A stretch of 64,000 nt of DNA from Eremomyces bilateralis CBS 781.70 (lineage: Eukaryota). Of the stretch, positions 3,001-7,907 are shown in pieces. The stretch is taken from NCBI GenBank assembly GCA_010015585.1, contig ML975185.1; one strand, written 5' to 3'. The notes under the pieces were generated by a model that did no database searches, was not told the DNA's origin, and was given only the letters and a program-made list of their open reading frames with translations. The translations under genes were made by a program, and so were the position numbers. Within the stretch, counting starts at the first letter, position 1. Each line of letters opens with the position of its first letter.

Positions 3001-4651
3001 GCTCGTGAGTGAACAATTGGGACTCGGCAAGTTCGCCCATGTCGGAGCCTGAAGAATTGCCTGACGATGGAACTTTTGTTAATGACGGTTCATGATAATG
3101 GATGCCAGAGCCCTGGCTGGATGCCTCGTCAGATGGCAGTGATGATTTAGCGGCGAGTGGTTCCGACTGAGAGAGTAGAATCCCTTGACCTTCCGCTACG
3201 TGATCCAAAGACCTTGACGACCAGAGAGGCGCATCAGTATTTGCTGAAGTCACGAGATTGGCAAGCCGCAGTGGTAGGGACTGAGAACTCCCACTATCAG
3301 AAGCAGACCGGCGGCTTTGAAGTTGCCTTCGGGTTCGCCAATCATGGAATGATACAGACTGTGTCAGTTCTGGATCGTCTTCCCAAAAAGAGTCTCCGAC
3401 GGAGGCTATGCCAACGTCGTCAATCTCGCGCTCCAAGATCGTGGGGGAGCCGTTATCGCCGGGAAGAGGCATAGAGCTAACATTCCGCGTTGAAACCGGA
3501 TCATGACCATCGTCATCTGCATCGGCGAATCGGTCGGCATCTTGGGTAATAATCGAATCCCTTAGACTTTCCGAACGATTTTGCCGAATCGTCGGAGAGT
3601 GGCCTGAAATGGAAGCTGTGGGACTGCGGACGGCGGATCGAGAAGTTTGCGGAGACGACGTTCTATGCCGAATTTCTGAACCGGGTAGAGATCCCGAGGT
3701 CGCACTCCCTGAAACAGAACGATTGGCTGACGGGGATGCGACAGACGGTACGGTGGACGTAGTTTGCGTATTGAACAACCTTGAGTCCGCAATCAATGAG
3801 GCAATCACATTTTGGAGTACCACTCGTCTCCGAGGACCAGGTTCTTTTACTTGAGGAGTTGGAGATGACCCGGTAGTAACCCCTTCGATCCCGATATCGT
3901 CGATGTGAAGTCGAAGGCATGCTTCATAGTCATCCTTGATGCTTATCGCGGGAAAACTTTCGTTTGATAGAGGACCAGGATCAAGAAAGCAGTCAATATC
4001 CCGGACGGTCAATTCTAACCTGTCGCCAACGCCCTTTAACCAGCTCGTCAGGAAAATGGGGAGACTGATGCCAGTCCCAGTGCCGAAAGCAAGATCGTCT
4101 TCAGATTCCGAGTCGGAAAGGTGCATCGACTGGGACTCCAAGGCCGCTTCTAATTCTTTCTTCTCGTCTGCCGGTTCCTCAGCTAAGAAGGACTTTGCCA
4201 AATCTTGAGCAGTCGGAAGGCCTTCCTCTTCGCCGTGAGCACTCGACTTAGATGGACTAGGCTGTCCTGTTCCAGCTTGTGCCGCCGGCTTAATGGTGAT
4301 TTTGAGCTCGACACCTCGCGCCTCGACTCGGATGGGTGTCGCATGAAGATCAGTTGGGATGGACACCCGGAGAAGACGTACGGTAGCTTTGGATAGCTCG
4401 AAATTCGGGGGTAGATGGAGAATCGATAGCAATTTCTACCAGACAATGCATCAGCAGTTTTATCTTTCTCCGATGGAGTCTTGGTCCCGTACCTGTGTGC
4501 GCAGCGCGACATCGCGAAGCTCTACGACGTTCTTCCTTCCCCACGCGATGTCCAAGCTGTCCAGGTCAAGTGCGTCGGTGTCGAGCACATCGATATGAGA
4601 TAGGGCATAGCGAAGGACCCGCCGCTGGATGGAATACGGGATGAACGACAT
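1..4651 (-). CDS. ATG2: Autophagy-related protein 2, 5' part (continues beyond the left edge)
   Basis: ATG at 4651 (MSFIPYSIQRRVLRYALSHIDVLD, chorein-N-like start). Intron 4436-4492 (GTACGG...GCTGAT...TAG). Exon 2 is in the same frame at the points checked down to position 1 and contains METCADSTQTL at ~370, typical of fungal Atg2. It is absent from the ORF track, consistent with no stop inside the window. Confidence 0.9.
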
Positions 4652-5527
4652 GGAGGGTTCAGGGTCCTCGGGCCAAACCCGCAATCAAGAGTGCAGAAGG
4701 ATCCTGTTTTGAGAGAGAGCCATGGGCGCAGCTGTGCGTGCCAGGTATTCCGATGAGGTGAGGGCCGCAGAGTTGGGCACGAGGGCAATAGGGTGGCACG
4801 ACAGAAAGTCAGAGGTGGGCGTCTGGATGATACAAAGGTTAATATATGAGAATCAAAGAGTGAAATAGGTCGATGGTTAAGGCAGCGGCATTGTTGGGGT
4901 CAGGGTGCCTGGAAAGAACAGAAAGACGAGCGTATAGGGTAGCTGGGTGATCAAGAGATAGGGTGTTGATGGTGCTGAATGTGGACCAGCACAGCAAGGA
5001 GACATCAGATGGTACAATGTACTGCGTAGCTTGGTTGATTGATTTGAATATAGAGGTACTCCGTACCGTTGGGTTAATAGGTTAAGGATGGTACCATCGG
5101 AACAGGACCGTACTGAAGATACAGTACATCAGGGACGGTGAGAGAGGTCCTGATATTGATCAACACAGGAACTAATACAGTACAGCCTCCAGAGGCAGTA
5201 CGTATCGGATAGTACCAAGTTAAAGGAAAGGTTGGATGAATAGTGAAGCCATCCGATGGAGGATGGAGGCATGAACCATCGGGATGATGAATGCACGTGA
5301 TCATTCTGGTGCTATGGCTGTGAATGGGGGGGTGATGGGAAAAGGCGTCAAGGCTACAAGGCTAACATGGAACTAACACCTGAGCTCGCTAACACCAGGA
5401 CGAATTCTACCCACTTCAGCGCAAAACTCGGGATCACGAAGACAAAAACATGTTCTATCAATATCATAAAAAAAAGCTGCTATATATACTTTGCTTCCTG
5501 AAGGTAAATCTTGGGAATATGCCACCC

Positions 5528-5539
5528 AAAAACAAAAAA
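5528..5539 (-). terminator. RNA polymerase III oligo-T terminator of the tRNA-Arg gene
   Basis: TTTTTTGTTTTT on the minus strand about 20 nt downstream of the tRNA 3' end. Confidence 0.8.
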
Positions 5540-5559
5540 GATCTGGCAAGTTTGATATT

Positions 5560-5691
5560 AGACCCAGCTGGGACTCGAACCCCTTTAATGGTTGTTAGTA
5601 TGATTCTTTCTCAATTTCTTGCATTTTTATGACTTACAGAACCTTGCCCTTACTATAGGAGGGGCACGCGCTACCATTGCGCCACAGAGCC
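5560..5691 (-). tRNA. tRNA-Arg(CCT) with a 5-nt anticodon-loop intron (5651-5655) and a 55-nt spliceosomal-type intron in the T-stem (5583-5637)
   Basis: Minus strand reads GGCTCTG TG GCGC AATGGTA GCGC G TGCCC CTCCTA[TAGTA]A GGGCA AGGTT CT[55 nt]GGG TTCGAGT CCCAG CTGGGTC T. Removing both inserts gives a 72-nt cloverleaf with perfect D, anticodon and T stems. A box TGGCGCAATGG, B box GGTTCGAGTCC, anticodon at 5657-5659. Confidence 0.92.
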
Positions 5692-6363
5692 AGAATTAAG
5701 CAAAATAAAGGAATTAAGCTGATGATTCTAGCTCATTTTCTAGTCGTTGTGGCCTGAGGACAGCTTGGAGAGCTGAGAGCGGGGAAAACACCAGTCACGG
5801 CTCAGCCACACTAAGATCAACATCCCTGTCACTCTGTGGAGCTAGCCCCATCCAGATTTCAGTGACAAGAGCAACAGAAGCAATCTGATCGACGAAGCAT
5901 CAATTCCTTTGAATTTTGAAACTTGAAACCCCTTGATTGCTGGCTTCACCCACCATATATTATTTCCTTGAAGATGTATAATTTCCCTTATACTTCATTT
6001 TCATTTACTGGGGTAGGACATCGAGGGTGAGGGCCATTATTGAGATTGGAAAGTTTGATATATATCCAATTCAGTCAGATCAGTAGGATAGACACTTCAT
6101 ATAGGAGGAATACGGTATTAAGATATATCTACTAACTAGACTTAAAAAAATTAGATAATGCCCTATTAGGAATGGTTATGTTAACCGCCACTAGTTTTCT
6201 TCCACCCATGATTCTGCTTTATATCACAACCTAACACTAGTTAGGACACCAATACACAAACATGTTGTACACCAATATGCTGAACCTATTGATAGTGGTA
6301 TCTTGTGAAGAGAAAGGTATTCTATGCATTGTGTGCTCTGAGTTTGCGCTTCCATTTTGTTCT

Positions 6364-7275
6364 TCATCGCAAGTTTTCTCCTCCTGAAAGATCTCCTGCA
6401 CTTTGCATCTTCTCTAACCTTTCTCCATCTTCAATCAAGTTGGTCTGAAGCAGCTCCTTCTCTGAGTCATCCACCTTTAGATCAGCGCATGAGGTGATGA
6501 AGTCGCACAACATGTTCTCAACCTGACCTGCGTTCTGGGTAAGAGCGTGATCATCACCATCAAATAGCTTGAGCGTCCTCTGCCCACCCGGTCCATACAT
6601 GGTGTACAGTCTCCCGGAACAGCTCGGACCTAGAGTTCGATCGGCTGTGCCATGAAGCAGCAGCAAGGGCCGAGGGGAAAGTTGTCGAATTCCGTCCGTT
6701 TCTGCAGTCTGACTTGCTATGGTTGCGCACCCAACAACGCGTTGATCCTTCCCCGCGACGGTCAAGGCCGGTGCACCTCCGAAGCTCCATCCTACCAAGA
6801 TGAAACGTTCCAACCCGTAAAGATCTTTCATCAAGTCCATCGCAGCGGTGACGTCTCGGGCACAATACGAGTTCCTCGCTGGGAAGCGGTAGTCCAGTCG
6901 AAGACAAGGGATCCCTCGTTCCAAACTGGCCAGTTTGTCGGAGATTCCAAGATAGACGCTGCTAGGACCGACGACCCCTCCTCCAGCTCCGGATAGAAAT
7001 ATCGCCGCCGTCTGTTTCGGGGCCGTAGTTCGATTTCGAGCGAAGTTGACGGGGAGGTGGAGAAATCCGGTGACAAAGCCATCTTGCGCATCTTCCACCT
7101 GAATCTGCAAAGGTTCAACTTTGCACAGCAGCGATTTAGGTGTCGGTATCTTGTTCAGACGTGTTGCATGGCTTAGGGCTTTGAAATCCTCGATCTTACG
7201 AGGCTGGATACCTGCCGGTTTGGTGCCGATCGCGGAGAGCGATGTCCTTCGTGATGAAGCAAGCATCGTCGCCAT
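6364..7275 (-). CDS. Alpha/beta-hydrolase fold protein
   Basis: 303-aa intronless ORF with nucleophile elbow GWSFGG, LLLLHGTADRT (Asp) and GDDHAL (His), forming a catalytic triad. Confidence 0.85.
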   Translation of the reverse strand: MATMLASSRRTSLSAIGTKPAGIQPRKIEDFKALSHATRLNKIPTPKSLLCKVEPLQIQVEDAQDGFVTGFLHLPVNFARNRTTAPKQTAAIFLSGAGGGVVGPSSVYLGISDKLASLERGIPCLRLDYRFPARNSYCARDVTAAMDLMKDLYGLERFILVGWSFGGAPALTVAGKDQRVVGCATIASQTAETDGIRQLSPRPLLLLHGTADRTLGPSCSGRLYTMYGPGGQRTLKLFDGDDHALTQNAGQVENMLCDFITSCADLKVDDSEKELLQTNLIEDGERLEKMQSAGDLSGGENLR

Positions 7276-7907
7276 ATTTGCAGAAGATATACTGATATCC
7301 TTTGTTTATTCGAATTAGTCTGTTCGCAAGTTTTGAGATGCAAGATACTAATACTGTTGCGTTGAATCGTTACTAGACACTGGACATTGATATGGCGATG
7401 ATGTCATCATTACCTCTCATGACCGGCGGATTAAAAGGGTTCAACAAAGGGTACTGTGGAAATGTTGCCTTCTCTGTTCTAACAAGGACGTGTATGTACC
7501 GTGCCACAAAAATGCATTTTCGGAAGCATTGAATGTGCCTGCAGGGCTCCTGATGGCGCAGAAGGACAACTTGGGACACAAATGGAGTAAGCTGTATGCC
7601 TTGCAGCAGCTCCACAAGGTGGGATGTAATTGTCCAGAGAGGCAGCACGGGGCCTCCTGTTGCGCATATAATCCTAGACCAAGGCCTGAGTACGACGCAT
7701 ATCGGACGGATCATCAGAGCTGGTGATCGTCTTGTGGGAGGTGCCTAAGTTTCAGAGCCTGAAGGAAATATGGATGGTTATCTCAAGCTCAGCGCATTGC
7801 TTCCAGGTTCCATGCGAATTCATACCTATTACTTGCTGTATGGCATTCCGCGCCTGTCTATTCCTGTCGACCTCTTTCCGCGCTGAAATCTCCTTTCTCA
7901 CACTGGT

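Follow-up and report, generated by a model that had tools for sequence, protein, structure and literature searches.

The window, by which we mean the whole stretch of 64,000 nucleotides that was analysed, carries on its minus strand a tRNA-Arg(CCU) gene that is interrupted twice, once in the anticodon loop and once in the T stem (Table 1). As judged from Pfam matches and reading frames, this gene occupies a spacer of 1.7 kb, downstream of a gene for an alpha/beta-hydrolase and upstream of the gene for ATG2. With Rfam and ARAGORN, no further tRNA and no other known RNA family was found above threshold in the 64-kb window.

Table 1. Features of the interrupted tRNA-Arg(CCU) gene and RNA-verified introns of the neighbouring ATG2 gene; all positions are those of the window.
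Feature	Position	Strand	Basis
Interrupted tRNA-Arg(CCU) gene, from G1 (5691) to the discriminator U73 (5560)	5560..5691	-	Rfam and ARAGORN
Exon 1: acceptor 5' strand, D arm, anticodon-stem 5' strand, C32 to A37 including the anticodon CCT	5656..5691	-	Sequence and ARAGORN cloverleaf
Acceptor 5' strand	5691-5685	-	Sequence, ARAGORN
A box, in exon 1	5684-5674	-	Sequence
Candidate micro-intron TAGTA at 37/38	5651..5655	-	Sequence; structure energies
Exon 2: A38, anticodon-stem 3' strand GGGCA, variable loop AGGTT, C49 and U50 of the T stem	5638..5650	-	ARAGORN
Spliceosome-type insert, 55 nt, between T-stem bases 50 and 51	5583..5637	-	Sequence signals
Exon 3: G51-G53, T loop, T-stem 3' strand CCCAG, acceptor 3' strand CTGGGTC, U73	5560..5582	-	Sequence and ARAGORN
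B box, in exon 3	5581-5571	-	Sequence
Putative RNA polymerase III terminator: T6 (5539-5534) and T5 (5532-5528), 20 nt past the tRNA end	5528..5539	-	T-run listing; function inferred
ATG2 5'-UTR intron, 244 nt, starts GTACGG	4823-5066	-	X3 RNA contigs
ATG2 intron just past the first coding exon, 57 nt, starts GTACGG	4436-4492	-	X3 RNA contigs

Taken as it stands, the locus is poorly recognised by tRNA-finding tools: the Rfam tRNA model matches it over model positions 1-71 with 22.6 bits, short of its gathering score, 29, and ARAGORN calls no tRNA there on the untouched window DNA. When both inserts are cut out by coordinates, the resulting 72-nt sequence is accepted by ARAGORN as tRNA-Arg(cct); when either one is removed and the other kept, there is no normal tRNA-Arg call, and the tRNA reading of the locus depends on the 55-nt insert also being taken out. 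The 72-nt form has perfect D, anticodon and T stems, with a D stem of 4 bp and a variable loop of 5 nt, and an acceptor stem of 7 bp in which two pairs are G.U and one, 6.67, is a U.U mismatch. The A box, the B box and the downstream T6 are all intact, and the gene is free of internal T runs of four or more. In silico, removal of the 55 nt makes the cloverleaf the minimum-energy fold of the gene.

The anticodon stem (TGCCC/GGGCA) consists of five Watson-Crick pairs and closes a loop of 12 nt, CTCCTATAGTAA (5661-5650, minus strand), which confirms from the minus-strand sequence the loop size given in a first-pass annotation of this DNA. At 5651-5655 the plus strand reads TACTA, hence TAGTA on the minus strand, and taking out 5655-5651 leaves the canonical seven-nucleotide loop C32 U33 C34 C35 U36 A37 A38. 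The accompanying claim, that removal of TAGTA restores a normal loop, is thereby borne out, the proposed junctions recreating the loop of intron-less relatives. Cutting out ATAGT, one base earlier, yields an identical product, and the cut sites are therefore set only by the 37/38 convention. By our own arithmetic, a random 5-nt insertion would fall at 37/38 at about 2 of 73 positions, and a G would occupy the third-last place of the insert by chance alone in one case out of four. A GTAAGG hexamer that overlaps the micro-intron (5647-5652, minus strand) resembles a 5' splice site, probably as a chance match; its use as an alternative donor with a downstream AG was rejected, as the product would be left without the 3' strand of the anticodon stem and the tRNA would be destroyed.

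The third-last base of TAGTA, a G, faces C32, as had been noted in the annotation, and the fourth-last base, an A, faces U33, so that a 2-bp helix is possible. According to the structure energies, the 3-nt bulge on the 3' side can form as well: in the 2-bp fold, a loop of 5 nt holds the 5' cut site and a bulge made of U, A and A38 holds the 3' cut site. This fold is predicted at -4.8 kcal/mol versus -5.9 kcal/mol for the open 12-nt loop, a difference of +1.1 kcal/mol that makes the open loop the minimum-energy state. The full 4-bp anticodon-intron helix cannot form with TAGTA, since 5 nt are too short and two pairs (C32:G and U33:A) are the most that can be made, and a bulge-helix-bulge of two 3-nt bulges and a 4-bp helix is likewise impossible.

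[quoted passage not shown] The same passages present the anticodon-intron pair as vital and the mature tRNA body as the part that the enzyme recognises, which matches what the annotation had put forward as established. Like the human pre-tRNA-Arg(UCU) in that cryo-EM complex, the window gene has its insert one base past the anticodon, a C32:G pair at the third-last place and a possible 3-nt bulge; unlike it, as far as those passages describe the complex, the window gene can form only 2 bp of the 4-bp helix, has its cut sites five bases apart and carries a second, putative intron of a different kind.

In length, TAGTA stands apart from known canonical introns. A review that cites the genomic tRNA database gives, in the passages used here, a range of 6-133 nt for eukaryotic canonical tRNA introns (PMC4090602), and 5 nt fall outside it; the same passages state that short insertions in eukaryotic tRNA genes have mostly been taken as marks of pseudogenes. 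They also describe non-canonical inserts of 3-24 nt in tRNA genes of the Guillardia theta nucleomorph (Kawach et al. 2005, via PMC4090602), where excision of inserts of only 3 nt was confirmed by RT-PCR. TAGTA resembles these inserts in being only a few bases long, and their excision shows that tiny introns can be processed. On the other hand, the nucleomorph inserts, as reported in these passages, sit in the D arm, the T arm and other places of the anticodon stem-loop, belong to the reduced nucleus of an endosymbiont and are removed by a mechanism given there as unknown, whereas TAGTA sits at the canonical site in a fungus-like nuclear genome. In the literature outside subscription journals, our search found no paper on tRNA introns of 4-7 nt or on minimal endonuclease introns.

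Relatives of the gene were collected from metagenome contigs with a pattern made of the D arm and the first six loop bases, which returned at least 80 loci, 71 of them unique among the matches listed. The pattern fixes CTCCTA, so that agreement in these bases is circular; the remaining agreement is not. Among the 80 matches listed, 64 are plain intron-less tRNA-Arg(cct) genes by ARAGORN and 54 have a 7-nt loop under a strict stem parse, and two (L004 and L013) receive no ARAGORN call. An insert at 37/38 is present in 13 of the 80 listed loci and 10 of the 71 unique ones (by the parse, checked by eye), with lengths in the unique relatives listed of 12, 13, 13, 27, 33, 36, 36, 41, 46 and 47 nt. 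None of the 80 has an insert shorter than 12 nt at this site, and TAGTA is less than half as long as the shortest. The comparison of intron lengths that the annotation had proposed for Arg(CCT) genes thus bears out the site, which the family uses, and finds no counterpart to the length among the relatives listed. Of the 10 unique relatives listed that bear an intron, a fixed parse gives 4 with G as the third-last intron base, including all three with introns of 12-13 nt; with so few carrying it, this G is a modest sign and a weak discriminator.

Identity was ranked among loci called as Arg at the expected start, which leaves out L004, L013, L026, L044, L049, L059 and L068. The closest relative among the matches listed is L023, which agrees with the window gene at 67 of 72 bases, has an identical variable loop and T stem, an uninterrupted T arm and an intron of 46 nt at 37/38. 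Against L023, pair 28:42 is G:C in the window gene versus U:A, and pair 5:68 is C:G versus G:U, both compensatory changes. Bases 8-36 are identical to those of the intron-less L001, L019, L055, L066 and L067, all of which have an unambiguous 7-nt Arg(CCU) loop; over the whole body, 63 of the 72 bases agree with this group, and in the T stem both partners of 49:65 and of 50:64 have changed, hence again in a compensatory way. It is this match of the body to intron-less Arg(CCU) genes that gives the window gene its Arg(CCU) identity. The window gene shares its U6.U67 mismatch with the L001 group, and its G2.U71 pair too, and the odd acceptor stem is therefore a family trait rather than a sign of decay.

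With its differences from relatives either compensatory or shared, the gene looks to be under selection and not decayed, and it shows none of the usual pseudogene signs, be it broken stems, lost boxes or terminator, or uncompensated changes. Because 37/38 is the intron site of the family and the surrounding gene is so well kept, we read TAGTA as almost certainly being, or descending from, a canonical tRNA intron.

Three relatives (L044, L070 and L071) likewise combine a 37/38 intron of 36, 12 and 36 nt, respectively, with a second GT..AG insert that has a branch-like motif. In the oriented loci, the tRNA begins at base 395. The second insert lies where T loop and T stem meet in L044, in the variable loop in L070 and in the 3' acceptor strand in L071, and its removal leaves, in all three, tRNAs that ARAGORN recognises. 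Two other loci are irregular in their own ways: L042, an Arg(CCU) gene with a canonical intron of 47 nt, has an irregular-looking start and 3' end and, downstream of the T arm, a GTAAGT..AG-like stretch that is possibly another acceptor-stem insert, and L022, a GC-rich (66%) Arg(CCU) gene with a 7-nt loop and a variable region enlarged by about 29 bases, is probably not fungal. The same pattern of D arm and loop gave a single match in viral contigs, on one that is as long as the contig of L074.

The insert in the T stem starts with GTAAGT and has TACTAAC 12 nt before its final AG. With these GT..AG ends, a branch-site motif and a length like that of the organism's introns, it bears, on sequence signals, the marks of a spliceosomal intron, and no bulge-helix-bulge was seen around it in the constrained fold. 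Its size is close to that of the RNA-verified ATG2 intron of 57 nt in the same window. This intron and one of 244 nt in the 5'-UTR, the former within the coding region, appear in the contigs of run X3 as two GT..AG joints, from which the run is recognised as RNA; as the 57-nt intron is spliced there, the organism does splice introns of the size of the tRNA insert. Together with the gene content and the TACTAAC motif, this intron size points to a fungus. A makes up 53% of the insert, T runs in it never exceed two bases, and premature termination by RNA polymerase III would so be avoided; the nearby RNA-verified ATG2 introns are 24-32% A.

Run X3 gives no RNA cover over 5242-5777 and hardly any from there to 5911. 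On one side, the ATG2 transcript can be followed to 5209 or beyond, which leaves about 350 nt to the 3' end of the tRNA; on the other, a low-depth RNA contig at 5898-6132, from the transcript of the minus-strand hydrolase gene or its read-through, comes to about 200 nt from the 5' end of the tRNA. Read-through by polymerase II may give a transcript that spans the tRNA.

U6 is itself a product of polymerase III. Introns of the mRNA type are described in passages of PMC5855946 for fungal small RNA genes, namely U6 of fission yeast as well as U1, U2, U5 and rRNA genes, and these, as introns with spliceosomal signals inside genes for small structured RNAs, are a precedent for the 55-nt insert and hence for the partner on which any claim about an order of splicing rests. 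The cases differ from the window gene in that the passages concerned mention no tRNA gene and no second, tRNA-type intron in the same RNA. Outside subscription journals, our literature search found no paper on spliceosomal introns in tRNA genes.

An order in which the spliceosome acts before TSEN, as first proposed in the annotation, is made plausible by two independent grounds, predicted folding and, by analogy with yeast, the geography of the cell. With the 55-nt insert present, the minimum-energy fold of the gene (-29.3 kcal/mol) is not a cloverleaf, and forcing a cloverleaf brings it to -16.9 kcal/mol, at a cost of 12.4 kcal/mol; the pair probability of the T stem is at most 0.06, and those of the acceptor, D and anticodon stems are about 0.35-0.58. 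By this thermodynamic prediction, the mature domain folds only after the 55 nt have been removed in silico. A canonical substrate of the human type needs a folded tRNA body, as set out in passages of PMC10539383, and that of the window gene is predicted to fold only without the 55-nt insert.

As to geography, an argument that goes beyond the annotation, the spliceosome acts in the nucleus, whereas passages of PMC4090602 place the tRNA splicing enzymes of budding yeast in the cytoplasm and report that a block of export makes pre-tRNAs accumulate.

Should the fungus resemble yeast in this, geography by itself would let the spliceosome come first. Several introns per tRNA, sometimes removed in order, are known from archaea and from the red alga Cyanidioschyzon merolae (passages of PMC4090602; also PMC3728597), and the window gene is like these in being interrupted more than once; unlike it, the introns described there are all of the bulge-helix-bulge type and are served by one endonuclease, whereas the window gene would imply two unrelated machineries.

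We therefore favour, at a probability of roughly 0.5, the reading that this is a live tRNA-Arg(CCU) gene in which TAGTA is a working canonical intron, extreme in length. RNA polymerase III would transcribe the twice-interrupted gene, and the spliceosome would most likely excise the 55-nt insert first, in the nucleus, because the T stem, and with it the L-shape, is predicted to form only once this insert is gone. The fungal Sen (TSEN) enzyme would act second, with the 5' cut set by distance from the tRNA body and the 3' cut set with the help of C32:G (and U33:A) and the 3-nt bulge U-A-A38, and would leave the halves to be joined by the fungal tRNA ligase. The more specific proposal contained in this scheme, that Sen cuts a 5-nt intron without a 4-bp helix and does so only after the spliceosome has restored the T stem, is one that we hold tentatively, at a little short of even odds. 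What the annotation had called a true TSEN intron stands as far as the canonical 37/38 site, the well-kept gene and the C32:G pair are concerned, and is called into question by a length below the range given in the review and by the impossibility of the 4-bp helix.

The main rival to a working micro-intron is a dying or dead copy, in which a longer canonical intron, such as the 46 nt of L023, has been deleted down to 5 nt, the endonuclease fails and no usable tRNA results. The missing helix, the lack of any insert below 12 nt among the 80 relatives listed, the Rfam score below threshold and the silence of ARAGORN on raw DNA all fit this explanation, as do the published length range and the habit of reading short inserts as pseudogene marks (both from passages of PMC4090602). 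Against it, nothing is broken in the four stems, the two promoter boxes, the terminator or any signal of the 55-nt insert, the differences from relatives are compensatory, and the deletion would have to have spared A38 and kept a G as precisely the third-last base; the death of the copy may, however, be very recent. Ten long frames of the window contain 526 Arg codons, of which 64 are AGG; being in use, this codon needs a reader, which in a dead-copy scenario would be another Arg(CCU) gene or tRNA-Arg(UCU). In yeast, tRNA-Arg(UCU) can cover AGG and tRNA-Arg(CCU) is dispensable, at least in budding yeast, so that a dead copy could persist. On balance we regard this explanation as rather unlikely, with a weight that still has to be reckoned with.

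It is improbable, in our judgement, that only the 55-nt insert is removed and the 12-nt loop kept, giving a stable tRNA-like RNA with a regulatory, decoy or other role. Such an RNA would be in keeping with the predicted fold of the arm, whose energy is lowest with the loop open, yet the loop retains the exact 5' and 3' bases of the normal Arg(CCU) loop, as expected of an intron and not of a re-purposed loop, and the literature outside subscription journals yielded no precedent.

Very improbable are the other gene models, which arise from the output of ARAGORN on the insert-less and the raw sequences. Once the 55 nt are taken out, the program prefers a tRNA-Thr(agt) in which CCTAT, 5 nt long, is inserted at 33/34. 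We rejected this tRNA-Thr(AGU): its body would be that of the intron-less Arg(cct) genes already described, a shift of the same kind is made by ARAGORN in L070, which it calls Ser(tga), so that the Thr(agt) call looks like a habit of the program, and 33/34 is, to our knowledge, not a site of the eukaryotic tRNA endonuclease. At a relaxed threshold, ARAGORN also offers a single anticodon-loop intron of 42 nt with a long variable arm, which was rejected for its mismatched anticodon stem, a T stem of 3 bp and 25 unpaired nucleotides in the variable region. Least credible of all is an assembly or sequencing error behind TAGTA: the comparison covers a single independent assembly, and the DNA contig of depth 163 that is identical to it over 3500-7500 confirms the DNA only weakly, as it may itself be the source of the window, but a clean insertion error of 5 nt in non-repetitive sequence would be unlikely.

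If TAGTA is excised, it would set a new lower limit of length for the eukaryotic tRNA splicing endonuclease and be the shortest canonical intron of a nuclear tRNA. It would also make the gene a natural substrate that lacks the 4-bp anticodon-intron helix, a case of interest for the question of how each of the enzyme's two active sites gets to its cut site. Should Sen indeed depend on prior action of the spliceosome, maturation of this tRNA would require two splicing machineries, one always acting before the other, and the presence of the 55-nt insert would make the gene a simple system in which to ask whether folding or the geography of the cell is the cause of that order. If TAGTA is not excised, the locus would instead show a canonical intron shrinking until its tRNA gene dies.
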